A stretch of DNA of 38,045 nt from a virus (lineage: Duplodnaviria; Heunggongvirae; Uroviricota; Caudoviricetes). The stretch covers positions 1 to 38,045 of IMG/VR virus record IMGVR_UViG_2534681663_000013; one strand, written 5' to 3'. Shown one piece after another: positions 1 to 24,938 of the stretch; within the stretch, counting starts at the first letter, position 1; each line of letters starts with the position of its first letter. The notes under the pieces are model-generated. The model searched no databases and was not told the origin of the DNA. It saw only the letters and a program-made list of their open reading frames with translations. A program made the position numbers and the translations under genes.

Positions 1-599
1 CTGAACGCGGAGTGAATGTCGATCACTCCACGATTTACCGCTGGGTTCAGCGTTATGCGCCTGAAATGGAAAAACGGCTGCGCTGGTACTGGCGTAACCC
101 TTCCGATCTTTGCCCGTGGCACATGGATGAAACCTACGTGAAGGTCAATGGCCGCTGGGCGTATCTGTACCGGGCCGTCGACAGCCGGGGCCGCACTGTC
201 GATTTTTATCTCTCCTCCCGTCGTAACAGCAAAGCTGCATACCGGTTTCTGGGTAAAATCCTCAACAACGTGAAGAAGTGGCAGATCCCGCGATTCATCA
301 ACACGGATAAAGCGCCCGCCTATGGTCGCGCGCTTGCTCTGCTCAAACGCGAAGGCCGGTGCCCGTCTGACGTTGAACACCGACAGATTAAGTACCGGAA
401 CAACGTGATTGAATGCGATCATGGCAAACTGAAACGGATAATCGGCGCCACGCTGGGATTTAAATCCATGAAGACGGCTTACGCCACCATCAAAGGTATT
501 GAGGTGATGCGTGCACTACGCAAAGGCCAGGCCTCAGCATTTTATTATGGTGATCCCCTGGGCGAAATGCGCCTGGTAAGCAGAGTTTTTGAAATGTAA
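1..599 (+). CDS. tnpA: IS26 transposase Tnp26, 5'-partial (N-terminal ~39 aa outside window)
   Basis: Reading frame is open from position 3 in the frame of the 12-599 ORF. The protein matches the IS6-family DDE transposase. Confidence 0.9.
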   Translation, partial: ERGVNVDHSTIYRWVQRYAPEMEKRLRWYWRNPSDLCPWHMDETYVKVNGRWAYLYRAVDSRGRTVDFYLSSRRNSKAAYRFLGKILNNVKKWQIPRFINTDKAPAYGRALALLKREGRCPSDVEHRQIKYRNNVIECDHGKLKRIIGATLGFKSMKTAYATIKGIEVMRALRKGQASAFYYGDPLGEMRLVSRVFEM

Positions 600-651
600 G
601 GCCTTTGAATAAGACAAAAGGCTGCCTCATCGCTAACTTTGCAACAGTGCC
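1..651 (+). mobile_element. IS26 (IS6 family), partial; element continues upstream of the window
   Basis: Translation of 12-599 matches the C-terminal ~195 aa of Tnp26 as recalled (DHSTIYRWVQRYAPEMEKRLRWYW...GEMRLVSRVFEM). The reverse complement of the IS26 terminal IR GGCACTGTTGCAAA lies at 638-651. Confidence 0.9.
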
Positions 652-3413
652 TTGTATCCAGGGTTGCTTCCCGACTGAAACTTCAGCCTGATTTATGGCC
701 GGAATATGCATCCAGAGAGCAAACCCGCTGGGAACATCTGACCGAACTTTATCGCTACCTGGAACTATCCCCGTTCAGCCGGTCAATGCAAAAAGACTGT
801 ATCCGTCATCTGCACCCCTATGCCATGCGAACTGACAAAGGATTTATGCTGGCGGAAGAAATGCTCAGCTGGCTACATAACAATAATGTTATTTTCCCTT
901 CTGTTGAAGTGATCGAACGGACGCTTGCCGAAGTCGTCACGCTCGCTAACAGATCGGTATTTTCGACACTTACCGTGCAACTGGAAAAGCAGCATAAATC
1001 AGCACTCGACAGCCTGCTCATATCAGAGGGTGAACAACCTTCCCGTCTGGCATGGCTGCTACAGCCTCCGGGTAAAATAAACGGTAAAAATGTGCTGCAA
1101 CATATCGACCGGCTTAATTCCATCGCTGCGCTGGGGTTGCCTGATGGTATTGCACTTTCCGTTCACCAGAACAGGTTGCTTAAACTGGCGCGTGAGGGCC
1201 GGAAAATGAGCAGCAGAGATCTGGCTAAATTCACCGATGTCAGACGTTACGCTACGCTGGTTTGTGTCATTCAGGAAGCGCGGGCCACACTGACTGATGA
1301 GGTTATCGAACTGCACGAACGTATTCTGGGCACTCTGTTCAGCCAGGCAAAACGCACACAAGCCGAGAGGCTTCAGCTGACGGGGAAACTCATCCAGAGC
1401 AAGTTGAAGCAATATTTTACTGTCGGTCAGGCACTACTGCATGCCAGAGAATCCGGTGAAGATCCCTGGGCAGCGATAGAAGATGTCCTTCCCTGGCAGG
1501 AGTTCATCAACAGCCTGGAAGAAACACGGTTTCTGTCCCGTAAGGGCAATTTCGACCCGCTTCACCTGATCACCGAAAAATACAGTACGCTGCGTAAATA
1601 CGCCCCGCGTATGCTGTCAGCATTGCAGTTCATGGCGACACCTGCGGCGCAGACGCTCAGCGATGCGCTGGACACCATCAGGGAAATGTACCGTAAACAA
1701 CTTCGTAAAGTGCCGCTATCGGCGCCAACAGGATTTATCCCTGAAAGCTGGCGAAAACTGGTACTCACGCCTTCAGGAATCGACCGCAAGTACTACGAGT
1801 TTTGCGTAATGAATGAACTCAAGGGGGCGCTACGTTCCGGTGATATCTGGGTAAAAGGATCGCGCCGCTACAGAAATTTTGATGATTATCTCATCCCGAC
1901 TGCTGAGTTTGAGAAATCCCGCCACAATGACCAGTTACAGTTGGCCGTTCAGACCGATTGCCAGGCATATCTTCAGGCCCGTATGACGCTTCTTGCATCG
2001 CGTCTGGAAGAAGTTAACGCGATGGCGCTTGCCGGTGATTTGCCCGATGTTGATATTTCAGATAAAGGAGTAAAAATCACTCCGCTGGAGAACAGCGTCC
2101 CTTCGGGTGTTTCGCCCTTTGCCGATTTGGTTTATGGCATGCTTCCTCATCCGAAAATTACAGAGATACTGGAAGAAGTGGACAGCTGGACGGGGTTTAC
2201 GCGTCACTTCGCGCACCTCAAAAATAATAACGTCAGACCAAAAGACGGAAGACTGTTGCTGACCACCATTCTGGCCGACGGCATCAATCTGGGGCTGACA
2301 AAAATGGCGGAGTCCTGCCCGGGGGCAACAAAATCGTCACTCGAAGGTATTCAGGCATGGTACATCAGAGATGAAACTTATTCAGCGGCACTGGCCTAGC
2401 TGGTCAACGCTCAGAAAGCGCGGCCTCTGGCCGCATTCTGGGGCGACGGGACAACATCATCGTCAGACGGGCAGAACTTTCGGGTAGGCAGTCACGGACG
2501 TTATGCCGGTCAGGTCAATCTTAAATATGGTCAGGAGCCGGGCGTGCAGATTTATACGCATATCTCAGACCAATACAGCCCGTTCTATGCCAAAGTGATC
2601 AGCCGGGTGCGCGACTCAACCCACGTGCTTGATGGCCTGCTGTACCATGAAAGCGATCTGGAAATTACCGAGCATTACACCGATACCGCAGGCTTCACTG
2701 AACATGTTTTCGCCCTGATGCACCTGCTGGGATTCGCTTTTGCGCCGAGGATCCGGGATCTTCATGACAAGCGGCTGTTTATTCATGGAAAGGCCGAACG
2801 CTATCCGGGGCTTCAGTCCGTCATATCAACAACCAGCCTGAATATCAAAGACATTGAGGCACACTGGGATGAGGTATTGCGCCTGGCAACCTCGATTAAG
2901 CAGGGGACAGTCACCGCATCGCTGATGATGAAAAAGTTAGCCAGTTACCCAAAACAGAATGGACTTGCCAAAGCGCTGAGAGAGATTGGCCGCATTGAGC
3001 GGACACTATTTATGCTGGACTGGTTCCGTGATCCCGGTCTGCGCCGACGCGTACAGGCGGGGCTGAATAAGGGGGAGGCCCGTAATGCCCTTGCGCGAGC
3101 GGTCTTTATGCACCGTCTGGGTGAAATAAGGGATCGTGGGCTGGAGAATCAGAGTTACCGCGCCAGCGGGCTGACGTTACTGACAGCGGCGATCACGTTG
3201 TGGAACACGGTATATATAGAAAGAGCTATTGAGTCACTAAAACGAAAAGGTATCCCGATAAATGAGCAACTGGTATCTCATCTTTCTCCCCTGGGCTGGG
3301 AACATATCAATCTGAGTGGAGATTACGTCTGGCGTAATAATCTTAAGCTGGGATCCGGAAAATACCGCTCATTACGCACAGTCGACACCACATTGTACAA
3401 AAAACAGTCTTAG
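652..3413 (+). pseudogene. tnpA: Tn3-family transposase TnpA, 5'-truncated by IS26 and interrupted by an in-frame TAG at 2397-2399
   Basis: ORFs 639-2399 and 2544-3413 are in the same frame with no other stop between them. The joined translation is collinear with Tn3-type TnpA (C-terminal signature ...[23 protein letters not shown]...). The N-terminus is missing because the IS26 IR ends at 651. Confidence 0.85.
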
Positions 3414-9950: not shown

Positions 9951-10190
9951 ATGTCTAAGTCATTACTTGATCTGCTTAACAAGACCCGTGGCGATATTGC
10001 TTCCAAACGTGGCAATAACATTGATTTGACCCGTCTGAAAGATGGCAATAACTATCTGCGCATTTTTCCGAACAAGGACGAGCAGGTCGTGAAGATCATC
10101 GCTCGCGTCGCCAAACACCTGAACCACGACGCAATCAAGTTTGACGAAGCCGCTGCTTCGAAGCGAATCAACGAATCAAAAGGAGCCTAA
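9951..10190 (+). CDS. Hypothetical 79-aa protein immediately upstream of recA
   Basis: Good RBS (AAGGAGAAATAC-ATG). Its 3' end carries the recA RBS. Confidence 0.55.
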   Translation: MSKSLLDLLNKTRGDIASKRGNNIDLTRLKDGNNYLRIFPNKDEQVVKIIARVAKHLNHDAIKFDEAAASKRINESKGA

Positions 10191-10192
10191 TC

Positions 10193-12532
10193 ATGGCAAA
10201 AGGCAAATCCGCACTGGCACTGGCGCTGAAAAAGAAAATCGGCAGCAATGACGAGATTCAGAAGGTCTCCCACTGGATTGACTCCGGTTTCCCTCCACTG
10301 AACAAAGCCATTTCCGGACGTTACGACGGTGGTTTTCCGTGTGGGCGTATCGTTGAAGTCTTCGGGCCACCAAGCGCGGGGAAATGTGTTACCGCAGACA
10401 CCATGCTGCTGACGGAGCGTGGAATGGTAACAGTGAAAGAACTGTTTGAGATTGAGGGGCACAAAGCAACATGCACTACTCGCGATGTAGAGCATAACGT
10501 TGGACTCATCAATGAAAATGGCGTGATAGAGAAGACCTCACACCTGACATGGAACAACCGTCGCAAATTCAAGCGCATTAAGCTGGCATCAGGGGGTTAC
10601 ATCGAGGCTACGTTCCGTCACCCAATTCGTGTGGTTGACGACTTAGGCAATATCGTCTGGCGGTATGCTGAAAAAATCAGTGTAGGCGACACGATTCCTT
10701 CAATGGTTGGCACACATCAATTCGGCGATCAGCACTTGGATGCCAATATCGCAAAACTGATGGGCTATTTAATTGCTGACGGATACGTGGCCTCTGAAAA
10801 TTCTGTGCATGTTTCTAACACAGATCCATTCATCAAGGATGAGTACTACCGCCTCATTTCGCTGGTATCAGACAAGATGCCAGTTACGAGAAAACATAAC
10901 GGCTCGGAAGACCATGTGCTGTTTAGCAAAGAGGGGCGTTCGCTGCTTTTTAAAGAATATGGTCTGGAGTATGAGAAAGCTGCTGGCAAGCAGGTTCCGT
11001 TGAGTGTGCGTCGCGCCAATAGCGAGGCTCAAATTGCATTCCTTCGCGGCTACTTTGAGCTGGAATGCCACGTCAATGATGGTCGCTGCATTGAGGTTGT
11101 GAGCGCGAGTGGGCTGCTGCTACAGCAAATTCGCCTCATGCTCCTGAATCTGGGGATTACGTCAACTATCTCTGAAAAACACGTCGCAGGTTATAAAAAC
11201 ATATATTACCGGCTGTCATTCAGTGGCTCTAACTACGACCTTTTCCTGTCAACGATTGGGTTCGAGTCTCCGGCTCGTTTAGCAGTGGCAACCAAACGGG
11301 ACATTAGTTTTGACCGCACTTATTTAGGCTACGTTCCGCACATCAGCGGCTTAGTGAAATCACTCTACGAGTCACTCACCAAGACCTCTCGTAAAGACTA
11401 CGTTCTGGTAGATCACGTTATTGGCCGCGGCGATCGTGTCGGAATAGACAAACTGCGAGAAATCTATGTCTCCTTCATTGGCAGAAAGAATCGTTTTAAC
11501 GAGCATCTGTTTGCACAACTGGCAGCGGTAATTGACTCTAACTTGTTCTACGACGAAGTCGTGGCTATTGAGGAAGGTGAAGCACCAACGTTCGACGTAG
11601 CGATGCCGGAAACACACTCTTTCTGGTCTAACGGGATTATCAGCCACAACACATTCCTCGCGACGGCTGCGATGGTGTCAGCACAAAAACAGGATGGGCT
11701 GGCCGTATTCCTTGACCACGAAAACAGTTTCGACGTTGGTCTGGCGGTAGCGAACGGACTGAACGCCGACGAAGACGACGGTCAGTGGGTCTACAAACAG
11801 CCGGATACCTTCGAAGACTCCGTAGAGCTGATCGGCACAATCCTCAAGCTGGTGCGCGACGAAGAGCTTATTCCGGAAACAGCCCCTATCTGCATCGTAG
11901 CCGACTCTCTGGCGTCGAGGGTTCCGAACTCGAAGGCTGAGAAGTTCGACAAGATGGCAGAAGGCACTGCGAAGGACAAAGATCAGCTGAACATGAACGA
12001 CAACACGGAGCTGGCGCGCGCGACAAGTGCGAACTTCCCTACTCTGGCGCTTTGGGCGCGTAAGTACAACGCGTGCATCATCTTCTTGAACCAGGTGCGT
12101 ACCAAAATTGGTGTGATGTTTGGCGATCCGACTACGTCTCCGGGTGGCGACTCTCCGAAGTTCTACGCGTCGGTGCGCATCCGTCTGGGTGCATCCGTCA
12201 TGAAGGATGGCAAAGAGAAGATCGGACAGGACGTTGGCGCCGAGTGCATTAAAAACAAAGTCGCGCCTCCGTTTGGCAAATGCTCATGGAAATTCTACTT
12301 CGACCCGACTCGCGGGCTGGACGTCGTCGAGTCTCTGGTTGAATACATGCTGGAGGAAGGATACCTGCCCAAGAGCGCCAGCGGGCGTGTGGAAATTGGC
12401 GAGAAGAAATACACCAAATCACAGATCGTCGAGATGTATCGGGAGAAGCCATTAGCTGAAATCATTGCTGCGTTACAGGCAATAGATGACAGGCGCGAGA
12501 AGACATCACCGACAGATGAATTAGAAGATTAA
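10193..12532 (+). CDS. recA: RecA/UvsX-family recombinase precursor containing an intein
   Basis: N-extein ends GPPSAGK, C-extein starts TFLATAAMV and continues with a RecA-like core. The exteins sum to ~357 aa. Confidence 0.85.
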   Translation: MAKGKSALALALKKKIGSNDEIQKVSHWIDSGFPPLNKAISGRYDGGFPCGRIVEVFGPPSAGKCVTADTMLLTERGMVTVKELFEIEGHKATCTTRDVEHNVGLINENGVIEKTSHLTWNNRRKFKRIKLASGGYIEATFRHPIRVVDDLGNIVWRYAEKISVGDTIPSMVGTHQFGDQHLDANIAKLMGYLIADGYVASENSVHVSNTDPFIKDEYYRLISLVSDKMPVTRKHNGSEDHVLFSKEGRSLLFKEYGLEYEKAAGKQVPLSVRRANSEAQIAFLRGYFELECHVNDGRCIEVVSASGLLLQQIRLMLLNLGITSTISEKHVAGYKNIYYRLSFSGSNYDLFLSTIGFESPARLAVATKRDISFDRTYLGYVPHISGLVKSLYESLTKTSRKDYVLVDHVIGRGDRVGIDKLREIYVSFIGRKNRFNEHLFAQLAAVIDSNLFYDEVVAIEEGEAPTFDVAMPETHSFWSNGIISHNTFLATAAMVSAQKQDGLAVFLDHENSFDVGLAVANGLNADEDDGQWVYKQPDTFEDSVELIGTILKLVRDEELIPETAPICIVADSLASRVPNSKAEKFDKMAEGTAKDKDQLNMNDNTELARATSANFPTLALWARKYNACIIFLNQVRTKIGVMFGDPTTSPGGDSPKFYASVRIRLGASVMKDGKEKIGQDVGAECIKNKVAPPFGKCSWKFYFDPTRGLDVVESLVEYMLEEGYLPKSASGRVEIGEKKYTKSQIVEMYREKPLAEIIAALQAIDDRREKTSPTDELED
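10385..11650 (+). other. Intein (422 aa) with LAGLIDADG homing-endonuclease domain, inserted between Lys and Thr of the RecA Walker A motif
   Basis: Begins with Cys (CVTADTML), TxxH block (ATFRHP), LAGLIDADG blocks (LMGYLIADGYV, LRGYFELECHV), ends ...GIISHN followed by Thr. Confidence 0.8.
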
Positions 12533-13088: not shown

Positions 13089-13250
13089 ACTTTATGGTGT
13101 CATAAACTTAAATCTAGCGCCGGGTAGAACAAGTTAATCGAACGATGTAGCGGCCATTTAGGCGTTACAGAAAGAACAGAATTTTAAATTTATAGTGAAG
13201 CCGTTGCAGCAACTTTGTGGGGTGCAACCAACACTGAACAGGAAAAGAAA

Positions 13251-15680
13251 ATGGATCATAGTGTACATAACAAGCTCATCTCATTTATATGGAACATTGC
13301 CGACGACTGTTTACGTGATGTGTACGTTCGCGGTAAGTACCGCGATGTGATTTTACCTATGGTGGTATTACGACGTTTAGATACGTTACTTGAACCCACC
13401 AAAGAAGCCGTGCTTGAAGAGGTCAAGTTCCAAAAAGAAGAGATGCAAGCCACGGAGCTTGATGATGAACCATTGAAGGCGGCTAGTGGTTATGTTTTTT
13501 ACAATACATCTAAATGGACCCTGAAATCCCTGTTCAATACCGCAACGAATAACCAACAGATATTACTCGCCAACTTTGAAGAGTACCTGCTTGGCTTTAG
13601 CGATAATGTTAAAGAAATCATTGAATGCTTTAACCTCAAGTCGCAAATTCGTCACATGGCCTCAAAGCAAGTCCTTCTTGATGTCGTCGAAAAGTTTGTT
13701 TCCCCTTACATCAACTTAACTCATGAAACGGTCGAAGACCCAGATGGCAACAAGATGCCAGCCCTTACTAACCTGGGTATGGGGTACGTGTTCGAAGAGT
13801 TGATCCGTAAGTTCAACGAGGAGAATAACGAAGAAGCCGGTGAGCACTTTACACCTAGGGAAGTGATTGAGCTGATGACACACTTGGTTTTTGACCCAGT
13901 GAAAGAGCAGCTACCATTGACCATGACCGTTTACGACCCTGCGTGTGGTAGCGGTGGTATGCTCACTGAATCTCAAAACTTCATTGAAGAGAAATACCCG
14001 AACGACAGCCGAGATATTTACCTTTACGGCAAAGAGATCAATGACGAGACCTACGCGATTTGTAAATCGGACATGATGATCAAAGGTAACAACCCTGAGA
14101 ACATCAAGGTAGGCTCAACCTTGTCTACCGACGAGTTTGCGGCTTCACGCTTTGACTTTATGTTGTCTACCCCGCCATACGGTAAGAGTTGGGCGTCTGA
14201 ACAGAAGTACATTAAAGACGGCAGTGATGTGATTGACCCGCGTTTTAAGGTTAGCCTGAAAGACTATTGGGGAAATCTCGAAGTGGTGGATGCCACGCCA
14301 CGTTCGAGTGATGGCCAGCTGCTTTTCTTAATGGAAATGGTCAACAAGATGAAAGATCCGAGCGTAAGTCCATTAGGCAGCCGGATTGCCTCTGTTCATA
14401 ACGGCTCATCGCTCTTTACCGGTGATGCGGGCGGTGGCGAAAGTAATATTCGTCGCTTCATCATTGAAAACGACATGCTAGATGCCATCGTTCAGTTACC
14501 TAATAACCTGTTCTATAACACTGGCATTACCACTTACATTTGGGTGTTGAGCAACAATAAACCTGAGGCGCGTAAAGGTAAGGTGCAATTAATTGATGCC
14601 AGCTTGCTCTACCGTAAGTTGCGCAAGAACTTAGGTAACAAAAACTGCGAATTTGCGCCTGAGCACATCACGGAAATTACCGATACTTACCTCGCGTGTA
14701 AGGATGTTGAAAGAGCACTGGATGCAAACAATGATCCTGTTGGCATCGCCAGTAAGGTATTCAGCAATGACGATTTTGGCTACTACAAAGTCACTATCGA
14801 GCGCCCAGATCGCCGCAAAGCCAAGTTTACTCAAGATGCCATAGCCCCACTGCGTTTTGATAAGCAACTTAGTGAAGTGATGGAGTACGTGTACGCAGAG
14901 CACGGCGAACGTGTTTACGAAAAAACTGGCTACGGGTCAGATCAGAAAAAGAGCTTCTTAAAATCCATCGAGAAAGACATTATTTCTTGGTGTGAAGATA
15001 ACGACATCAGTCTCAATGCTAAGGCTAAGGCCAAACTGCTTGATGTGAAACACTGGCTGGCGCTAAAAGCATTGCTTGAAACTGCACAAACGCTGATGGC
15101 TGACATCGGTAGCATTGAATTTGATGACTTCAATAGCTTTAAAACCCAAGTTGATAAATCGCTAAAAGCCCATGCTATTAAGCTTTCAGCACCTGAGAAA
15201 AATGCCATTCTTCACGCGGTGAGCTGGTATGACGAAACCGCCAAGAAAGTGGTTAAAAAGGTAGTTAAATTAACAGGTGATAAATTAAACGACCTGCTGG
15301 AGCGCTATGAGTGTGAAGTCGCTGACTTGCCAGATTTTGGTTATTACCCCGTTCCTTCAGCAGAAGGCGGTAAAAAAGGCGAGTATATCACTTACGAGAC
15401 CAATTCAGACCTGCGAGATACAGAATCTGTTCCATTAAAGCAAAGCATTTACCAGTACTTCCTAGATGAAGTGAAGCCTCATGTCGATGAAGCATGGATA
15501 AACCTAGATACGGTAAAAATTGGCTATGAAATCAGCTTCAATAAGTATTTCTACCGTCATAAACCGCTGCGTAGTTTAGAAGAGGTCACAACCGACATTA
15601 TCAACCTAGAACAAAAAGCCGAAGGTCTTATTGCGCAGATATTGGGTGTGAACGTGACGGAAGTTCAGGGAGAAGCCTAA
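13251..15680 (+). CDS. hsdM: Type I restriction-modification methyltransferase subunit HsdM (long form, ~810 aa)
   Basis: AdoMet motif YDPACGSGGML, catalytic TPPYG motif, and the conserved HsdM C-terminal segment (LPNNLFYNTGITTYIWVL). Start taken as ATG 13251 with RBS AGGAAAAGAAA. Confidence 0.85.
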   Translation: MDHSVHNKLISFIWNIADDCLRDVYVRGKYRDVILPMVVLRRLDTLLEPTKEAVLEEVKFQKEEMQATELDDEPLKAASGYVFYNTSKWTLKSLFNTATNNQQILLANFEEYLLGFSDNVKEIIECFNLKSQIRHMASKQVLLDVVEKFVSPYINLTHETVEDPDGNKMPALTNLGMGYVFEELIRKFNEENNEEAGEHFTPREVIELMTHLVFDPVKEQLPLTMTVYDPACGSGGMLTESQNFIEEKYPNDSRDIYLYGKEINDETYAICKSDMMIKGNNPENIKVGSTLSTDEFAASRFDFMLSTPPYGKSWASEQKYIKDGSDVIDPRFKVSLKDYWGNLEVVDATPRSSDGQLLFLMEMVNKMKDPSVSPLGSRIASVHNGSSLFTGDAGGGESNIRRFIIENDMLDAIVQLPNNLFYNTGITTYIWVLSNNKPEARKGKVQLIDASLLYRKLRKNLGNKNCEFAPEHITEITDTYLACKDVERALDANNDPVGIASKVFSNDDFGYYKVTIERPDRRKAKFTQDAIAPLRFDKQLSEVMEYVYAEHGERVYEKTGYGSDQKKSFLKSIEKDIISWCEDNDISLNAKAKAKLLDVKHWLALKALLETAQTLMADIGSIEFDDFNSFKTQVDKSLKAHAIKLSAPEKNAILHAVSWYDETAKKVVKKVVKLTGDKLNDLLERYECEVADLPDFGYYPVPSAEGGKKGEYITYETNSDLRDTESVPLKQSIYQYFLDEVKPHVDEAWINLDTVKIGYEISFNKYFYRHKPLRSLEEVTTDIINLEQKAEGLIAQILGVNVTEVQGEA

Positions 15681-16987
15681 TGGAAAGTTTAGCTTTGATG
15701 CCGAAGTATGAGGCTTATAAAGATTCTCAGGTTCAATGGATAGGTGATATACCAGCCAACTGGCATCTGGAAAAGGCTAAGTGGCTGTTTTATAAAGCAG
15801 ATAGAAAGCCTCTCGTTGATGATGATATCGTCACTTGTTTCCGAGATGGGCAAGTTACGTTGAGAAAAAACAGAAGGACTGAGGGGTTTACTAATGCTTT
15901 AAAAGAGCATGGTTATCAGCGTATTTGTAAAGGGGACTTAGTTATCCATGCAATGGATGCCTTTGCAGGAGCGATAGGTGTCTCTGATTCTGATGGAAAA
16001 TCAACACCAGTATATGCAGCATGCGTCCCAAGAAAGATAGGCAAAGTTAATTCATATTATTATGCCTACTATATGCGTGATTTGGCTCTGTCAGGCTTCA
16101 TTGTGTCGCTTGCGAAAGGAATTAGAGAGCGCTCAACAGATTTTCGGTTTAATGATTTTGCAGAATTATTATTACCGTTTCCGGATTATGAAGAGCAAAC
16201 CCTAATAGCCAACTTCCTCGACAAGAAAACCGCTCTAATCGACGAAGCGATTTCGATCAAAGAGCAGCAAATTAGCCTGCTGAAAGAGCGTAAGCAGATC
16301 ATCATCCAACAGGCGGTGACCCAAGGGCTTGATCCCAATGTGCCAATGAAAGACTCCGGTGTGGATTGGATTGGTAAGATTCCAGCGCATTGGGATATTG
16401 TGCCAGGATTTACAGTATTTAAAGAGGGAAAAGACTCGAACAAAGGGATGATTGAATCACAAGTTTTATCTCTCAGTTATGGAAATGTTATTATAAAACC
16501 AGAGGAGAAATTGGTTGGGCTTGTACCTGAGTCTTTTGAAACGTATCAAATAGCTTTACCTGGCGACATCATAATACGTTGTACAGACTTGCAAAATGAC
16601 AAAACGAGCTTGAGAACGGGGATAGTGCGGAATAAAGGAATTATAACTAGTGCTTACCTTAACTTACGGTTGAAAACGGAACATTCAGCTGAATTTATGC
16701 ATTATTTTCTTCATGTATTAGATATAACTAAAACTATATATCGTTTTGGTTCTGGGCTGAGACAAAACTTGAGTTATAAAGATTTTAAGCATATGAGAAT
16801 ATTGATGCCTCCTAAAGCAGAGCAAATTGAAATAGTAAATTACATCAATAATCAAGTAGAAATGACTGAGTCATCTATTGATCTGATTAAAAATAAAATA
16901 GAAAAACTAAAAGAATATAAAACCACCCTGATCAACAGCGCCGTGACAGGAAAAATAAAAATCACCCCAGAAATGGTTGAGCAATAG
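15680..16987 (+). CDS. hsdS: Type I R-M specificity subunit HsdS (two target-recognition domains)
   Basis: Duplicated conserved HsdS segments (PDYEEQTLIANFLDKKTALIDEAI and PPKAEQIEIVNYINNQVE). Start overlaps the hsdM stop (TAATGG). Confidence 0.85.
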   Translation: MESLALMPKYEAYKDSQVQWIGDIPANWHLEKAKWLFYKADRKPLVDDDIVTCFRDGQVTLRKNRRTEGFTNALKEHGYQRICKGDLVIHAMDAFAGAIGVSDSDGKSTPVYAACVPRKIGKVNSYYYAYYMRDLALSGFIVSLAKGIRERSTDFRFNDFAELLLPFPDYEEQTLIANFLDKKTALIDEAISIKEQQISLLKERKQIIIQQAVTQGLDPNVPMKDSGVDWIGKIPAHWDIVPGFTVFKEGKDSNKGMIESQVLSLSYGNVIIKPEEKLVGLVPESFETYQIALPGDIIIRCTDLQNDKTSLRTGIVRNKGIITSAYLNLRLKTEHSAEFMHYFLHVLDITKTIYRFGSGLRQNLSYKDFKHMRILMPPKAEQIEIVNYINNQVEMTESSIDLIKNKIEKLKEYKTTLINSAVTGKIKITPEMVEQ

Positions 16988-16996
16988 GACGCGAAT

Positions 16997-18160
16997 ATGT
17001 TCACGGTAAATCATCAAACCAACAGGATTAGTCCTGTTAGGACAAAGAAGTTCAGTGAGTTGGGCTTTACTGAGCGCAAGCATCTTCAGGAGTGGTTGGC
17101 ACACGAACCTTCCGCATTGGGTGAAGAGTTGTTGATTATTCAAAAAGAGTTCGATGGCTTTGATGACACCCGTGAACGATTAGATTTACTGGCACTGGAT
17201 AAAGATGGCAACTTGGTCATTATTGAAAATAAGCTGGACGACAGTGGCCGAGATGTGGTGTGGCAGGCCCTTAAATATGCCTCTTACTGTGCCAGTTTAA
17301 CCAAAGCACAAATAGTTGACATTTACCAGCAGTACTTAGACCGCTATGAGCCTGTAACAGCAGAGGTTGACCTGTTAAATGCCCCTGCAAGTGCCTCAGC
17401 TAGAATATGTGAGTTTTTGGATGCGCCCGATCTGGATGAGTTAAAGCTCAACCTGGGTAACAGCCAGCGCATTATGTTAGTTGCGGCAAACTTTCGCAAA
17501 GAAGTGACCAGCACCGCGCTGTGGTTATTGGGTCAAGGAATTAGCATTGCCTGCTTCAAAATCACGCCTTATTCACTGGGTGAACAGCTACTGATTAATA
17601 TTGACCAGATCATCCCAACGCCGGAAGCGAAAGAGTTGATGATCGGCATTAATGCCAAGGAAGCGGAAGAAAAAACCACCGAAGTGGTACTAAAAAACCG
17701 CCATACGGTGCGGCGCGAATACTGGGAGCGTGCCTTAGAGGCGTTTCAGAAAAGCGCTTGCCAACTCTATAACAACATTAGCCCAAGCAAAGATCATTGG
17801 TTATCAGCAGGCTCAGGGTTAAGTGGGTGTCCGTATAACCTGATATTTCTGCAAAAAGAGCTTCGAGTAGAGCTTTGGATCAGCCGTGGGGTTACCGAAG
17901 AGAATAAATACCTTTTTGACTTGTTGAGTCAGTCCAAACAGGACATTGAACATACTTTTGGTGCAGAACTTGAGTGGATGAGGCTGGATGAGAAGAAATC
18001 TTGCCGTATTCAGTTTTCGACCAAAGCTGATGGGTTTAACAAAGATACGTGGCCCCAAGCGGTTGCGTGGCACTTAGAGCAGATGACAAAGTTAGAAAAA
18101 GCCTTAAAAGGACCGCTGCAAAAAGCGGCTGAGGCAATGAAACAGAAGAATTTTGATTAA
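16997..18160 (+). CDS. Hypothetical protein with N-terminal PD-(D/E)xK nuclease-like motif, embedded between hsdS and hsdR
   Basis: 387 aa. Motif ...RERLDLLALDKDGNLVIIENKLDD fits the D-x(n)-ExK pattern. Same strand and tight spacing with the hsd genes. Confidence 0.6.
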   Translation: MFTVNHQTNRISPVRTKKFSELGFTERKHLQEWLAHEPSALGEELLIIQKEFDGFDDTRERLDLLALDKDGNLVIIENKLDDSGRDVVWQALKYASYCASLTKAQIVDIYQQYLDRYEPVTAEVDLLNAPASASARICEFLDAPDLDELKLNLGNSQRIMLVAANFRKEVTSTALWLLGQGISIACFKITPYSLGEQLLINIDQIIPTPEAKELMIGINAKEAEEKTTEVVLKNRHTVRREYWERALEAFQKSACQLYNNISPSKDHWLSAGSGLSGCPYNLIFLQKELRVELWISRGVTEENKYLFDLLSQSKQDIEHTFGAELEWMRLDEKKSCRIQFSTKADGFNKDTWPQAVAWHLEQMTKLEKALKGPLQKAAEAMKQKNFD

Positions 18161-18174
18161 GGGAACTTACAATT

Positions 18175-21100
18175 ATGGTCAGTCAAACCAATGAACAAGC
18201 ATTAGAGTCGGCCATTGAGAAATGTCTGGCTGGGATCAGTACTGAAGAGCTCAAAGAGGGGCTGAGTCAGCAGTCACTGGGTGCTGGATACTTCATTGGT
18301 GCTGCTAGTGACTTTAATATGCAATATGCCATTGATGAACGTTTTTTCTGGCAATTTCTGCAAAAGACACAAGAAGTAGAGTTGGCCAAACTGCAAAAGA
18401 ACAACCCCTCAGATTGGCAGCGTAAGTTACTCGAACGATTTGACCGATTGATTAAGAAGCATGGCATTCTTCATTTACTTAAGAAAGGGCTAAGCGTAGA
18501 CGATGCTCACTTCAATTTGCTCTATCCAGCCCCTTTGGCAAGTAGTAGTGAGAAGGTAAAGCAAAACTTTGCAGATAACGTGTTTAGTTGTACTCGCCAA
18601 GTGCGCTATTCCATGGTAAATCCCCTACAAGAAATCGACATGGTATTGTTTATCAACGGAATACCCTTGATAACGCTGGAGTTGAAGAACGCATGGACCG
18701 GGCAAACAGCACGTTATCACGGCCAAAAGCAGTATCGAGATGATCGGGATGCAACTCAGCCATTGCTGACCTTTGGCCGCTGCCTAGTGCATATGGCGGT
18801 CGATACCGACGAAGTGTATATGACCACCAAGTTATCAGGTAGCAGTACATTCTTCTTGCCGTTCAATAAAGGTCACAATCTTGGACAAGGCAACCCGCCG
18901 AATCCATCTGGCCATAAAACGGCATACCTATGGCAAGAAGTATTCACTAAAGACAGCTTGGCGAATATTATTCAGCATTTTGTGCGTCTGGATGGGTCAA
19001 GCAAAGATCCATTACCAAAGCGAACCCTGTTCTTTCCTCGATACCATCAATTGGATGTGGTGAGAAAATTAGTAGACCATGCCGCCCAGCACGGTGTCGG
19101 TCAGACTTACTTAATTCAACACTCAGCCGGTTCAGGTAAGTCTAACTCGATTACCTGGGCAGCTTATCAGCTAATTGAAACCTATCCTGCTTCGTCTGAT
19201 GTGGCAGGCGGAAAAAGCTTGGAGCAGCCGTTGTTTGACTCTGTGATTGTGGTCACCGATAGACGCCTATTGGACAAGCAGCTGCGGGATAACATTAAAG
19301 AGTTTTCTGAAGTAAAGAACATTATTGCCCCAGCGAATAAGTCTTCTGAGCTTAAGCAGGCGCTGGAGAATGGCAAAAAGATTATTATAACGACGATTCA
19401 GAAATTCCCGTTCATTATTGATGGTATCACCGATCTTAGTGACAAGCGCTTTGCAGTGATCATCGATGAAGCACACAGCTCACAGTCTGGTTCGGCGCAT
19501 GACAATATGAACCGAGCGATGGGCAAGTCTGAAGTCGAAGAGGCAGAAGATGCTCAGGATAAAATCCTTCAGGCGATGAGATCGCGTAAGATGCGCGGGA
19601 ATGCGTCGTACCTGGCATTTACAGCGACACCAAAAAACAGCACTTTGGAGAAATTTGGTCAACGCCAAGAAGATGGCTCTTAAAAGCCGTTTCACTTGTA
19701 TTCGATGAAACAAGCCATTGAAGAAGGCTTCATCTTGGATGTGCTGGCAAATTATACGACGTACAAAAGTTATTATGAGATTGAGAAATCAATTGCTGAT
19801 AACCCTGAGTTTGATACCAAAAAGGCGCAGAAAAAACTCAGAGCTTATGTAGAACGAAGCCAGCAAACAATTGATATCAAGGCAGAGATTATGCTGGAGC
19901 ATTTTGTTCCGCATGTCGTGAATACGAAAAAGCTCAAAGGTAAAGGTAAAGGAATGGTGGTCACTCAAAATATTGAGGCGGCCATTCGATACTACAAAGC
20001 GATAAGGCGAATACTTGAGGAGCAAGGAAACCCGTTTAAAGTTGCCATTGCTTTCTCAGGAACCAAAGAAGTTGATGGTATTGAATATACCGAAGCAGAT
20101 ATTAATGGTTTTGCCGAGTCAGATACCAAAGATATGTTTGATACCGATGAGTATCGACTTTTAGTGGTTGCTAACAAGTATCTGACTGGGTTTGACCAGC
20201 CTAAGCTTTGCGCCATGTATGTAGATAAGAAGCTCGCCAGTGTCTTGTGTGTTCAGGCGCTATCTAGGCTCAATCGCAGTGCACCTAAGCTAGGGAAGAA
20301 AACAGAAGACTTGTTTATCCTGGATTTTTTCAACTCGGTTGAAGATATTCAATCAGCATTCGATCCTTTCTATACAGCAACGTCATTGTCCCAAGCTACA
20401 GATATAAACGTACTGCACGAGTTGAAAGATGAAATGGACGATGTCGGTGTGTACGAGTGGTATGAAGTTGAAGACTTTGTGACGCGTTATTTCAAGAATG
20501 AAGACGCCCAAACACTCAGTCCAATCATTGATATTGCCGCAGCGCGGTTTGACCATGAACTAGATCTTGAAGCTGAAGCTAAAGTGGACTTTAAGATTAA
20601 AGCCAAACAGTTCGTTAAAATCTATGGGCAGATGGCTTCTATCATGCCTTATGAAATGGTCAGCTGGGAAAAACTGTTTTGGTTCCTGAAGTTTTTAATA
20701 CCGAAATTGAAAGTGGAAGATCCCGATGCTGATGCTATTGATGAGCTTCTCGATTCTGTCGATCTGAGTTCATACGGTTTGCAACGTGTGAAGCTTAACC
20801 ACAGCATTAAACTTAGTGACCAAGAAGCGGAGCTTGATCCTCAAAATCCGAACCCACGTGGGGTGCATGGCGGTGAAAAAGAAACTGACCCGCTGGATGA
20901 AATCATTCGCACATTTAATGAGCGATGGTTCCAGGGCTGGAGTGCCACACCTGAAGAGCAAAAGGTTAAGTTCGTGAACATCGCTGAAAGTATCCGCAAT
21001 CACCCTGACTTCGAATCGAAATACAAAAACAACCCAGATCCCCATAATCGAGATTTGGCCTTCGAAAAAATGCTCAAGGAAATCATGCTGCAACGCCGTA

Positions 21101-21192
21101 AAGATGAACTTGAGCTCTACAAGTTGTTCGCAGGAGATTCAGCATTTAAAGCCTCGTGGACGCAAAGTATGCAACGAATGGTGGGTAGGTAG
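18175..21192 (+). pseudogene. hsdR: Type I R-M restriction subunit HsdR interrupted by an in-frame TAA at 19681-19683
   Basis: ORFs 18175-19683 and 19696-21192 share one frame. Helicase motifs I (SAGSGKSNS), II (IIDEAHSS) and III (FTATPKNS) lie before the stop, and the conserved segment KQAIEEGFILDV follows directly after it. Confidence 0.8.
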
Positions 21193-21584
21193 AAAGGAGT
21201 GATGGTTTGCTGAAGGCAGTCTCAGAGTTATTAGGTGGGTCACCAGGCCTGAAAGGACGTCAAATTGCCAAGGAGCTGGGGCTGGTCAGCTGTCAGCAGC
21301 CGACTCACCGGTATAAACGTGGTGGTCATGAACATGTTGCTATCCCTAACTACCTTGAACGGCAGTTCGCCGTGACCGAGCCAAATCAGGTGTGGTGCGG
21401 TGATGTGACCTATATCTGGACGGGTAAGCGCTGGGCGTACCTCGCCGTTGTTCTCGACCTGTTCGCAAGAAAACCAGTGGGCTGGGCCATGTCGTTCTCG
21501 CCGGACAGCAGGCTCACCATGAAAGCGCTGGAAATGGCATGGGAAACCCGTGGTAAGCCCGGCGGGGTGATGTTCCACAGCGAT
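21193..21584 (+). mobile_element. IS3-family (IS911-like) transposase OrfB remnant, truncated after the HSD of the DDE core
   Basis: Translation ...[65 protein letters not shown] matches IS911-type OrfB as recalled. Homology stops at ~21584, with no orfA or downstream orfB. Confidence 0.7.
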
Positions 21585-21589
21585 AGTAA

Positions 21590-23040
21590 TAATGCCGATG
21601 TCAGTCTTTACCACCACTTAGTTTGCCGTTTAACCAGATTGGTGTGATTACTGATGCAGTGAAGACCTTCCCGCATCCTGACTCACACAGCGATCGACCT
21701 TTTGTGTCCTGCCCTGGACCCGTCGGTTGCCGGAAGCGCCTTCATGCGAGGCATCTCCTCACCGATGCGCGTGACTCAAGAAGGGCCTGACGGCTTGTCT
21801 CGTTACTGTCCTGTCCGGGTTATCTGTCTGGAGATTCAACTCTGTTTCCTCACAGGAGCTCTGTCATGGTTGATAAAGTTACCGAAGCTGCCGTTGTGGG
21901 TGGCGTGGATACACATAAAGATTTGCACGTTGCCGCTGTCGTAGATCAGAACAATAAAGTCCTTGGGACTCAGTATTTCTCCACAACACGACAAGGTTAC
22001 CGGCAGATGCTGGCATGGATGACCTCGTTTGGGACATTAAAGCGAATTGGTGTTGAGTGCACAGGTACCTATGGTTCCGGTTTGCTTCGTTATTTTCAGA
22101 ACGCCGGGTTAGAAGTTCTTGAGGTGACTGCTCCAGACCGGATGGAGCGACGCAAACGGGGTAAAAGTGACACAATTGATGCTGAATGTGCCGCTCATGC
22201 AGCATTCTCAGGCATCAGGACAGTTACTCCCAAAACGCGTGATGGCATGATTGAGTCCCTGCGGGTATTAAAAACTTGCCGAAAAACAGCAATATCAGCC
22301 CGCAGAGTCGCTCTCCAGATTATCCATTCAAATATTATCTCTGCCCCGGATGAATTACGTGAACAGCTCAGAAATATGACGCGCATGCAGCTCATCAGGA
22401 CCCTGGGTTCCTGGAGACCTGATGCCAGTGAATACCGCAATGTAACCAACGTTTATCGCATTTCATTAAAGTCCCTTGCCCGACGCTATCTCGAGTTACA
22501 TGACGAAATCGCTGATCTGGATGTCATGATTGCGGCAATTGTCGACGAGTTGGCACCTGAGCTGATTAAACGTAATGCTATCGGATACGAAAGCGCTTCA
22601 CAGTTGCTGATCACTGCCGGAGACAATCCTCAACGGTTAAGATCAGAATCAGGATTTGCGGCACTGTGTGGTGTCAGCCCGGTCCCCGTTTCTTCTGGAA
22701 AAACGAACCGTTACCGACTTAATCGTGGTGGAGATCGTGCTGCAAATAGTGCACTTCACATCATCGCCATCGGACGCTTACGAACTGACGCAAAAACAAA
22801 GGAATATGTCGCCAGGCGTGTAGCCGAAGGACATACAAAAATGGAAGCGATACGCTGTCTAAAGCGATATATCTCCCGCGAAGTTTACACGTTACTGCGC
22901 AATCAAAACAGGCGGATCAACAGTATCCCGATAACAGCTTGACTCTTAGAAGGGCGTCCAGGGCAGTCATTAGGTTCGTTTACAACAAATCGGGTGATGT
23001 ATACGGCGTTCACGCGAAGAACGACAGCTACCTTTTCGAT
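21590..23040 (+). mobile_element. IS110-family insertion sequence (ends approximate)
   Basis: Single DEDD-type transposase gene with ~280 bp of non-coding sequence upstream and ~100 bp downstream. Boundaries inferred from where IS911 homology stops and the next gene starts. Confidence 0.55.
21866..22942 (+). CDS. IS110-family (DEDD) transposase
   Basis: N-terminal RuvC-like motif VVGGVDTHKDLHVAAVVD and the typical C-terminal IS110/IS116/IS902 transposase domain (...SESGFAALCGVSPVPVSSGKTNRYRLNRGGDRAANSALH...). Confidence 0.9.
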   Translation: MVDKVTEAAVVGGVDTHKDLHVAAVVDQNNKVLGTQYFSTTRQGYRQMLAWMTSFGTLKRIGVECTGTYGSGLLRYFQNAGLEVLEVTAPDRMERRKRGKSDTIDAECAAHAAFSGIRTVTPKTRDGMIESLRVLKTCRKTAISARRVALQIIHSNIISAPDELREQLRNMTRMQLIRTLGSWRPDASEYRNVTNVYRISLKSLARRYLELHDEIADLDVMIAAIVDELAPELIKRNAIGYESASQLLITAGDNPQRLRSESGFAALCGVSPVPVSSGKTNRYRLNRGGDRAANSALHIIAIGRLRTDAKTKEYVARRVAEGHTKMEAIRCLKRYISREVYTLLRNQNRRINSIPITA

Positions 23041-23882: not shown

Positions 23883-24938
23883 CTATTTGCGAGCCTTTGC
23901 CTTGCGCAGCTCTTCGAGAATCGCCAGTTCTTCCTTGCTCAACATGACCATTTCCCCGTCTTTTTCTTCAGGGGCAACATCGATAATGTCCTCCGGATCA
24001 TCACCTGGCAAGATATCTTCTGGCTCTTCAGGCGTAGCCATAGATGGCGGCAGTGCCGAACGTAACTTCGGCCGTCTATAGTGGATGACGAAGTAGACCG
24101 AGCTGCCGCGTTTCACTTCAGTGTAATCGAGATAGCCGATCTCTCGCAGCTGCTCCATCGCCTTCCTGACTGTCGCATTCTGGGTAATGGTGCGGCTGGT
24201 TAAGTTAAGTCTGGCGCGTAAGCGAGCCAATGAGATTGGCGCCGGGTCTGGTGGCAAACTTTCAATGAAGGTGTAGAGCGCCTGCGCGGATTCCTTTCTG
24301 GAGAGTTCGTTGATGGCCCGAAGTTGCAAAAGCACCTTTTTGTCGAACTGGTAAAGTTCGAAAATCTTAGGATCGGCCTTCAGTTCGACCGTGTCATTCT
24401 TGGTACTGTACTTTGCCGTCTGCACAAGGTGCGTAACGTAATACTCTTCAGAGCCTTTGCTGCGGAATGAGATGGTGTTTGTGGCGATACGACTTAGAGA
24501 GCTGTCCAGGCGCTTACGTAACTTCGCGGACGATCTGGCTGTTGGTATGCCACAAAGTCTGACGAACTCGACGAACGGCAACGTGACGGTGTCACCAACA
24601 ACCTTGTGCTTGGCGAACGCGTGGATGATGCCCACCCATGTTTTGAAATCGTTATCCATATCAAGACGAAGACCAGCAATCCTTATATCCTCGTACCCTT
24701 CGGCTTTGGCCAGAGACAGCTGTTTGAGTTCAGCGGAGGCGTCCATAGAGACCATTTGCCCCTTTCTACCCCTGGATGTCGATTTCAGCGTCGGAACGAA
24801 GAGACCAAGACGCATCAGAGCAACAGGCTGAACTGTGTTGTTGGTGTTAGGAACTAACGTAACAACTTCGCCGGTCTTTTTGTCTGTTTCGGAAAATGCT
24901 TCGCTTATCGCAATGTTTTTATTGTCGTTTACGCTCAT
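23883..24938 (-). CDS. repA: Plasmid replication initiator RepA (P1 RepA / RepFIB-like)
   Basis: Signature segments [51 protein letters not shown] and LYTFIESLP match P1-type RepA as recalled. Flanked by iterons. Confidence 0.9.

Follow-up and report, generated by a model that had tools for sequence, protein, structure and literature searches.

Inteins of RecA-family recombinases have been catalogued by Topilina et al. (2015, NAR 43:6631, PMC4513877), whose Table 1 lists one from Escherichia coli 2865200 (M8W3V2) at a point termed c2, residues 65-486. The residues 65-486 are also given for all sister c2 entries, which come from Enterobacter, Salmonella and a further eight E. coli strains (PMC4513877, Table 1), and c2 is the same point as that of the archaeal RadA inteins (PMC4513877). 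The Pyrococcus horikoshii (Pho) RadA intein (c1; PDB 4E2T) likewise interrupts a RecA/RadA-family recombinase where the P-loop ends, and is a class-1 intein followed by Thr+1, but it is an archaeal mini-intein of 172 residues without an endonuclease. Topilina et al. regarded the E. coli c2 and Pho RadA inteins as independent invasions of one site (PMC4513877). P-loop inteins are also known in proteins unrelated to the recombinases, namely mycobacteriophage terminase (TerL1-a), DnaB-b, MCM-a and RFC-S-a, and these inteins are distantly related to the one discussed here. The original prediction, made from the DNA sequence without database searches, had held that the point between Lys and Thr is recurrent in other ATPases, in agreement with its description as a 'classic' P-loop insertion (Kelley et al. 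2016, PMC5050341), and that the mycobacterial RecA inteins are located elsewhere, as indeed they are: site a spans 252-691 and site b about 206-570 (PMC4513877, Table 1). Mature RecA needs splicing in Mycobacterium tuberculosis (PI-MtuI, site a) and Mycobacterium leprae (site b) as well; however, sites a and b are at the monomer-monomer interface rather than in the P-loop.

The DNA analysed here, the window, is a 38,045-nucleotide contig of E. coli 2865200. Its junction, GPPSAGK/C...HN/T, is that of a c2 intein, and both strain and coordinates equal the Table 1 entry; the element is identical. The intein, its site and its strain are therefore already known, and the finding is correct but ordinary. 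The novelty implied by the original prediction is lost, and with the intein, site and strain already published and the name 'intein-containing recombinase RecA' already used by RefSeq, the observation carries little weight as a discovery. Topilina et al. catalogued and modelled this intein only (PMC4513877), and no splicing or cleavage experiment on it was found in the literature. The additions made here are the phage-plasmid host, the occupancy counts, a signature of homing and a neighbouring private deletion of 2 kb. The best explanation of the locus is very probably a class-1 LAGLIDADG intein at the Lys/Thr point (c2) of Walker A in the recombinase of an SSU5/pHCM2-like E. coli phage-plasmid, for which splicing and homing are inferred.

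Insertion point and host gene

A RecA-family protein of 779 amino acids is encoded by the ORF at 10193..12532 (+ strand; ORF list and translation). The insert occupies precursor residues 65-486, exactly the 1266 nt or 422 amino acids that had been claimed (Table). GPPSAGK closes with Lys64, the codons of Cys65 to Asn486 run from nt 10385 to nt 11650, and Thr487 comes next, which confirms to the base that Walker A is split between Lys and Thr. The proposed comparison with intein-free homologues gave the same boundaries. In the protein alignment with SSU5_060 of phage SSU5 (exteins 96% identical, N-extein identical to its N-terminus) the gap comprises exactly residues 65-486 and SSU5_060 reads across the junction as an unbroken GPPSAGK-TFLATAAM. 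Four further intein-free alleles showed the same exact gap and a continuous GPPSAGK-T, so Walker A rejoins at this junction in all five. Both the anatomy of this in-frame insert and its junction are thus observed directly.

Table. Features of the intein-containing recombinase gene and its upstream flank in the window.
Feature	Positions	Strand	Basis
Remnant fusion ORF from private 2,046-bp deletion	9951..10190	+	blastn vs pB379_2, junction sequence, PHROG matches
N-extein, aa 1-64, ending in GPPSAGK (first seven Walker A residues)	10193..10384	+	ORF, translation
Upstream conversion tract, GCG GGG AAA in 7/7 intein-containing alleles	10376..10384	+	junction alignments
Intein, 422 aa, HINT splicing domain split by two-motif LAGLIDADG endonuclease domain	10385..11650	+	PF14890, PF14528, TIGR01445, TIGR01443, AlphaFold model
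Block A, CVTADTMLLTERG, Cys1 as first nucleophile	10385..10423	+	sequence
Block B, GGYIEATFRHPIRV, with T76-x-x-H79	10592..10633	+	kept in relatives' alignment
LAGLIDADG motif 1, LMGYLIADGYV, residues 125-135, Asp132 at catalytic position	10757..10789	+	sequence
LAGLIDADG motif 2, FLRGYFELECHV, residues 219-230, Glu227 acidic	11039..11074	+	sequence
Blocks F and G, PTFDVAMPETHSFWSNG-IISHN: Asp404 (F), penultimate His421, terminal Asn422	11585..11650	+	sequence, TIGR01443
Downstream conversion marker, Thr+1 codon	11651..11653	+	junction alignments
C-extein, aa 487-779 plus stop, Thr+1 first, completing GPPSAGKT	11651..12532	+	PF00154

Removal of the insert leaves a product of 357 amino acids which Pfam RecA (PF00154) matches in one unbroken stretch (E 5e-42), whereas the unspliced precursor is matched in two pieces. 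Walker B (ICIVAD), NQVR and the RecA core TTSPGG...KFYASVRIRL are all present in the C-extein, whose alignments to structures of E. coli RecA have E values of about 1e-31 to 1e-34. The split P-loop can be restored solely by splicing, as had been predicted. A free-standing homing-endonuclease gene and a gene fusion disrupting recA were both rejected because the insert is in frame, contains all splicing blocks and has exact boundaries.

The description of the host as RecA stood in part. The gene does encode a RecA-family recombinase (PF00154, 144.5 bits against a cut-off of 27; phrog_97, 'UvsX-like recombinase') but it is not the cell's own recA, as the spliced product reached only 153.6 bits with the RecA equivalog TIGR02012, whose cut-off is 325.3. 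A search of 5426 complete E. coli genomes found the intein in 120, at 121 places, every one of them on a plasmid and none chromosomal, and the chromosomal recA was rejected as host gene on that count. The region is syntenic with phage SSU5, phage Cyrano, Yersinia pestis pMT1 and non-mobilizable IncFIB plasmids of about 110 kb. The host gene thus belongs to an SSU5/pHCM2-like phage-plasmid and encodes its RecA-family recombinase, and where the c2 entry names the strain, the host is here seen to be a recombinase that is never chromosomal. Occupancy is patchy: in PLSDB the intein has matches in 248 plasmids and the C-extein in 842, so that about 70% of the homologous phage-plasmids lack the intein, which must therefore be dispensable.

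Membership of the mycobacterial RecA-intein family was rejected, since the corresponding model, NCBIfam NF007072, reached 93 bits where 1024 are required. Over the exteins, the match to this model continues to about profile position 253, the start of the mycobacterial intein, which corresponds to about residue 691 of the window protein and not to residue 64. The hosts of the mycobacterial inteins are moreover chromosomal recA genes of Actinobacteria, unlike the phage-plasmid gene here. No paper tying this intein to phage-plasmids, SSU5 or pHCM2 was found in the literature; PMC8914359 was considered as such a link and rejected, being a reference-list entry only. Database names for the protein vary ('LAGLIDADG family homing endonuclease', 'recombinase RecA', 'hint domain-containing protein', 'intein-containing recombinase RecA'), and PHROGs places the precursor in phrog_9666, a family of unknown function. 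With a phage-plasmid as host, an 'E. coli RecA intein' takes on another meaning in surveys of where inteins occur, and a mesophilic system based on E. coli suggests itself for direct tests of P-loop intein homing.

State of the copy in the window

The copy in E. coli 2865200 has a damaged neighbourhood. The private deletion in the Table took away the genes of a gp32-like SSB and a 5'-3' exonuclease as well as the first part of a small ORF, which together normally sit upstream of the recombinase gene, and the remnant ORF matches the N-terminus of the SSB and the C-terminus of phrog_2207. Downstream, hsdR contains an in-frame stop that pB379_2 lacks, and the region is bordered by IS and Tn3 fragments. 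Four private non-synonymous changes, F207V and V248G in the intein and M576R and A606E in the extein, all fall at positions that do not vary among the proteins of SSU5, Cyrano and pB379_2. The private substitutions together with the loss of partner genes mean that this copy may be non-functional, or that the draft sequence may hold errors. All of this would fit decay of the whole recombination module in this contig, leaving an intact ORF but no active recombinase, in which case the requirement for splicing would be moot. We hold this to be possible but rather doubtful. The ORF is complete, with all intein catalytic residues and RecA motifs intact, and T-to-G changes account for four of the seven nucleotide differences and may be sequencing errors of a draft assembly of the 2013 era. 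Decay would in any case leave the identity of the element unchanged.

Splicing and endonuclease domains

Every motif named in the original prediction (Cys1, TxxH, two LAGLIDADG blocks, the terminal HN and Thr+1) was found. The class-1 catalytic set is complete, comprising C1, T76/H79, D404, H421, N422 and T+1; the block A pattern C[VLI]xxDT is kept in all relatives in the alignment, and blocks F and G form the best-conserved stretch among them. Intein profiles matched above their curated cut-offs: Pfam Intein_splicing (PF14890) with 47 bits against 35.8, TIGR01445 (intein_Nterm) with 36.4 against 24.5 and TIGR01443 (intein_Cterm) with 17.1-17.9 against 15.6. Weak hits were also obtained for the N-terminal region with profile models of RFC and IF-2 P-loop inteins and with a terminase PHROG.

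An AlphaFold model of the intein (pLDDT 84.3, pTM 0.87) was compared with the PDB using Foldseek. The best match was the endonuclease-associated TliVMA intein 7qss (E 3.7e-24, TM 0.75), followed by PI-PfuI, PI-PkoII and PI-SceI. The mini-inteins of GyrA, TFIIB and Pho RadA matched over the splicing domain, so that a HINT fold is predicted. TliVMA (7qss), PI-PfuI (1dq3), PI-PkoII (2cw7) and PI-SceI share the predicted architecture of a HINT domain with a two-motif LAGLIDADG endonuclease, but the archaeal endonuclease inteins and PI-SceI are only 10-21% identical to this intein and differ in host protein and target site. A sequence search with the intein gave no detectable relationship to the Pho RadA intein and the structural match of the latter to the model is partial, covering the HINT domain only (TMq 0.22); close kinship was rejected for want of sequence support.

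The intact catalytic residues suggest that the precursor splices. Translation would yield a precursor with a calculated mass of 86.6 kDa and a split P-loop, in which a thioester would form between Cys1 and Lys64. Attack of Thr+1 on the thioester would give a branched ester, and cyclisation of Asn422, aided by His421, would release the intein of 47.6 kDa. An O-to-N shift would then leave a native Lys-Thr peptide bond in a recombinase of 39.1 kDa with an intact GPPSAGKT. Threonine at +1 is a weaker nucleophile than cysteine or serine, and this weighs against the splicing explanation.

The endonuclease domain matched LAGLIDADG_3 (PF14528) with 67.7 bits (cut-off 22.5, E 1e-18), and this match together with D132 and E227 places it in the two-motif LAGLIDADG family. 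In alignment with PI-PkoII and the V-ATPase intein 7qsu, motif 1 coincides with the corresponding motif of each, and Glu227 of motif 2 falls opposite their catalytic Asp. The ELEC form of motif 2 is atypical, and its acidic position is taken by Gly in some relatives, which counts against an active endonuclease. The endonuclease core, however, has a pN/pS of 0.09-0.11 in three pairwise comparisons, and a value of about 0.1 would be hard to explain for a dead domain.

Distribution and probable movement of the intein

Junctions were examined in seven intein-containing and five intein-free alleles, the junction and identity alignments being made with the inteins excised. At the upstream tract the five intein-free alleles read GCC, GCT or GCA and then GGT or GGG. 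For Thr+1, every intein-containing allele uses ACA and every intein-free allele ACC or ACG, and the conversion tracts are 3-10 nt long. Across alleles the inteins are 96.8-99.8% identical while the exteins are about 82-86% identical; this mismatch in divergence is observed directly, as in the K. pneumoniae allele, which is 99.7% identical to the window in the intein and 84.0% in the exteins. One intein clade (99.7-99.8%) is present in extein lineages that are 84% identical (Kp+ against the window, EcB379 and Ehor+). Between two compared intein clades pS is about 0.08 in the intein and about 0.6 in the exteins, or about 7-fold lower. The lineage-matched pairs Ec2+/Ec2- and Ehor+/Ehor- (each 98.5%) differ mainly at the junction codons. 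More distant intein relatives, of 27-44% identity, are all at the same GK/T point of other RecA proteins.

The mismatch, the tracts of 3-10 nt and the pN/pS of about 0.1 are the signature of recent homing, and from these population data we infer that the intein homes. If intein-containing and intein-free phage-plasmids met in one cell, the freed endonuclease would cut the intein-free P-loop coding sequence, and repair off the occupied allele would copy the intein with merely 3-10 nt of flank. An example of an intein-free site, which is the predicted cleavage target, is GGGCCACCAAGCGCCGGTAAA/ACCTTTTTGGCGACGGCT. The extein genes are mosaic, for example in the N-extein of Kg-, so general recombination must also move segments of the recombinase gene, and this weighs against an account by homing only. 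On balance we lean slightly towards the view that the 'first E. coli intein' belongs to phage-plasmids and is at present homing among diverged SSU5-like elements of Escherichia, Klebsiella, Enterobacter and related genera, with co-residence as the arena. If so, it would offer a natural and genetically tractable system for the study of intein homing in E. coli itself, and possibly also of incompatibility or competition between phage-plasmids.

The same intein might instead be an immobile fossil, competent in splicing but with a dead endonuclease, inherited vertically only and made patchy by losses. Within E. coli 'Ec2' the intein clade does follow the lineage of the exteins (identity between Cyrano and Ec2+ is 99.5% for the intein and 97.5% for the exteins), and the non-canonical motif 2 would suit this reading. 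Nevertheless a single clade of nearly identical inteins spans strongly diverged exteins, the intein pS is far below that of the exteins, the endonuclease core has a low pN/pS and precise loss would have had to restore different synonymous junction codons in each intein-free allele. An immobile fossil is thus unlikely, and recent homing remains the preferred reading.

Co-option of the intein as a post-translational switch, with the recombinase inactive until an ssDNA, redox or temperature signal permits splicing, is suggested by analogy with the Pho RadA intein at the same point, for which two reports describe conditional splicing controlled by the exteins and ssDNA (PMC4513877; PMC5238726), and the four cysteines of the present intein (1, 30, 228 and 235) could in principle form a redox trap; but the intein is dispensable, its sequence is unrelated to that of the Pho mini-intein, the structural match is partial and the Pho-type inhibitory orientation of intein and extein is sterically impossible in the precursor model of Topilina et al. 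(PMC4513877), making such a switch very unlikely.

Truncated copies of the intein in two plasmids were considered as mini-intein derivatives and rejected; they are IS-flanked remnants.

Anatomy of the intein and its predicted splicing

The sole long ORF over the interval in the ORF listing of the window runs from 10193 to 12532 (+) and encodes 779 aa. On translation, recombinase residues 58–64 read GPPSAGK, and are followed by an insert of 1266 nt or 422 aa from Cys65 (first nt 10385) to Asn486 (last nt 11650), after which comes Thr. The original prediction, that an intein at 10385–11650 splits GPPSAGK/T between Lys and Thr, was thus exact to the base. Every residue that it named was found, namely Cys1, T76xxH79, two LAGLIDADG blocks (125–135 and 219–230), the terminal His421-Asn422 and Thr+1; block F was present as well. 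The insert scored 47 bits against Pfam Intein_splicing (curated cut-off 35.8) and 67.7 bits against LAGLIDADG_3 (cut-off 22.5), and it exceeded the cut-offs of NCBIfam intein_Nterm and intein_Cterm. When the exteins were joined (357 aa), an unbroken Pfam RecA match was obtained (E 5e-42), which lies in two pieces in the precursor. Alignment with the intein-free recombinase of Salmonella phage SSU5, to which the exteins are 96% identical at the protein level, gave a single gap at exactly residues 65–486, the SSU5 protein reading GPPSAGK-TFLATAAM without interruption. Four more intein-free alleles (Klebsiella grimontii, a second E. coli lineage, Enterobacter hormaechei and Yersinia pestis pMT1) were likewise continuous. 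The intein in the Walker A motif is confirmed and the interpretation first placed on it is supported.

An AlphaFold model of the insert (pLDDT 84.3, pTM 0.87) gave the endonuclease-associated TliVMA intein 7qss as its top PDB match (E 3.7e-24, TM 0.75), followed by PI-PfuI, PI-PkoII and PI-SceI. The modelled splicing domain by itself also matches mini-inteins, and the inserted domain matches I-DmoI.

The intact class-1 residue set suggests that the intein splices. The route would be an N-S shift at Cys1, transesterification onto Thr+1, cyclisation of Asn422 aided by His421 and an O-N shift giving the native Lys64-Thr bond. Computed masses are 86.6 kDa for the precursor, 39.1 kDa for the spliced recombinase and 47.6 kDa for the free intein. 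As Walker A would be whole only in the spliced 39.1-kDa form, the proposed dependence of ATPase activity on splicing is supported by the sequence. Our literature search found no paper reporting measured splicing or cleavage for this intein.

A phage-plasmid recombinase and the published record

The identical 779-aa protein is in NCBI (EMV85374.1 / WP_001711107.1, Escherichia coli 2865200) as ‘intein-containing recombinase RecA’. RefSeq naming of it varies, the other names being LAGLIDADG family homing endonuclease, recombinase RecA and hint domain-containing protein. The region is syntenic with phages SSU5 and Cyrano, Y. pestis pMT1 and hundreds of non-mobilizable IncFIB plasmids (∼110 kb), the common gene order being DNA polymerase III alpha, regulator, gp32-like SSB, 5′-3′ exonuclease, small ORF, recombinase and small membrane protein. 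Intein DNA was found in 120 of 5,426 complete E. coli genomes at 121 sites, every one of them plasmid-borne and none chromosomal. This, with the synteny, rules out the cell's own recA as the host gene.

The predicted spliced protein clearly belongs to the RecA family, matching E. coli RecA structures with E ∼1e-31 to 1e-34 and a phage UvsX structure with 3e-8, and with 153.6 bits it stays below the RecA equivalog cut-off of 325.3. The intein-free form falls in PHROGs phrog_97, ‘UvsX-like recombinase’. The PHROGs v4 family phrog_9666 (779 positions, ‘unknown function’), matched by window 10193–12529, is the intein-containing precursor.

Among P-loop ATPases, the K/T junction within Walker A is the ‘classic’ site of intein insertion (Kelley et al. 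2016, PMC5050341; Novikova et al. 2016, PMC4760082), in agreement with the prediction that it recurs in other ATPases. In RecA and RadA, inteins insert at five points, named a to e by Topilina et al. 2015 (PMC4513877). Point c, the P-loop end, holds inteins both in archaeal RadA (c1, among them the well-studied Pho RadA mini-intein) and in bacterial RecA (c2), and the mycobacterial RecA inteins lie elsewhere, as predicted, at sites a and b. The E. coli 2865200 recombinase differs from the latter also in scoring 93 bits against their NCBIfam model, far below its cut-off of 1024. Comparison with published inteins found this one at identical coordinates: Table 1 of PMC4513877 has the entry ‘E. 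coli 2865200 (M8W3V2) c2 (65-486)’ and also records residues 65–486 for eight further E. coli strains, two Enterobacter and one Salmonella. The finding is therefore already published, and the intein is new neither as a class nor as an instance. The word ‘phage’ is absent from that paper, and our literature search found no paper tying this intein to SSU5, pHCM2 or phage-plasmids. What remains of interest is the phage-plasmid host, together with a clean signature of what appears to be recent homing between lineages and genera, a modest addition to the record.

Population pattern and probable mobility

In the plasmid database PLSDB the intein matched 248 plasmids (240 near full length) and the C-extein 842, with uneven intein/C-extein counts by genus (Escherichia 123/234, Klebsiella 71/347, Enterobacter 41/92, Salmonella 1/49, Yersinia 0/63); occupancy is therefore patchy. 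Between the K. pneumoniae allele and the window the intein is 99.7% identical and the exteins 84.0%, and synonymous divergence between the two intein clades compared is ∼0.08, against ∼0.6 for their exteins. Judged from these alignments, divergence of the intein is far below that of its host gene. The flanking codons GCG-GGG-AAA / ACA are common to all seven intein-containing alleles examined, and other synonymous codons are present at the junction in five of five intein-free alleles; past 3–10 nt from the junction every allele has its own lineage's sequence. Double-strand-break repair in which short tracts are co-converted would be expected to leave such a pattern; vertical descent or random recombination end-points would not. 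These population data point to a mobile intein. Since pN/pS in the endonuclease core (residues 111–295) is 0.09–0.11 in three pairwise intein-clade comparisons, the endonuclease seems to be maintained by selection.

The remoter intein relatives (27–44% identity) are all at the same GK/T point in other RecA proteins, and the endonuclease domain is degenerate or deleted in some, indicating a lineage that is faithful to a single target site. Two distant relatives (∼32–38% identity) are at comparison loci L015 (6001–8217) and L017 (6001–8166). One lies in the RecA of a phage-like contig (102 kb) that also encodes DNA polymerase A, methylases, a sigma factor and an integrase. The other, on a 550-kb contig, lies in a RecA with canonical GPESSGK/TT and the C-terminal domain RecA_C; its neighbouring ORFs have no Pfam matches and its first LAGLIDADG motif is lost.

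The recombinase gene is itself mosaic. In the extein alignment (first ∼400 nt; loci L004 versus L005) the N-terminal third of the intein-free K. grimontii allele is nearly identical to the SSU5/E. coli lineage and the rest to the K. pneumoniae lineage; ordinary recombination between phage-plasmid lineages is therefore also frequent here. E. albertii p3RM15113 (L011, 1309–∼3150) carries a third, more diverged intein clade (92–94% nucleotide identity) at the same site; the plasmid is shortened (62 kb), and its C-extein is cut off beyond residue ∼590. Intein 3′-terminal fragments at L008 (2501–2883) and L009 (2501–3084), 30% and 46% of full length and 99.8–100% identical, are joined to C-extein and adjoin IS3/IS30 remnants; they were rejected as mini-inteins and regarded as rearrangement debris.

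The copy in the window and its neighbours

A stretch of 2,046 bp directly upstream of the recombinase gene is present in the closest relative, pB379_2 (99.5–99.8% identical), and missing from the window. The SSB and 5′-3′ exonuclease are removed, leaving an in-frame fusion in which 43 codons from the start of the gp32-like SSB precede the final 36 codons of the small ORF. The deletion is private to the window, being absent from all close relatives among the matches listed. Between the window and pB379_2 the recombinase-intein ORF differs at seven nucleotides; four of these differences are non-synonymous and fall on residues that do not vary among the SSU5, Cyrano and pB379_2 proteins. Sequencing error is a live alternative to decay for these substitutions because four of the seven differences have G in the window, a draft assembly, where pB379_2 has T.

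Features of the window around the recombinase gene
Feature	Position	Remarks
IS6/IS26-type DDE transposase	12–599	
Tn3-family transposase	639–2399 and 2544–3413	two pieces
Fusion ORF	9951–10190	junction near 10081, 2-nt microhomology (GA)
Non-synonymous changes, intein	10811, 10935	F207V, V248G
Non-synonymous changes, C-extein	11919, 12009	M576R, A606E
hsdM	13215–15680	looks intact
hsdS	15680–16987	looks intact
DUF4268 gene	16997–18160	looks intact
hsdR, type I restriction subunit	18175–21192	two ORFs, 502 + 498 aa; in-frame TAA at 19681–19683
IS3 integrase-core fragment	21207–21647	
IS110-family transposase	21866–22942	
Rep3-type replication initiator	23883–24938 (-)	

The hsdR homologue of pB379_2 is a single intact gene of 1005 aa. 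In SSU5 and pMT1 an SPFH/band-7 gene is found at that position in place of the restriction-modification island. Mobile-element debris flanks the phage-plasmid genes at 12–3413 and 21207–22942.
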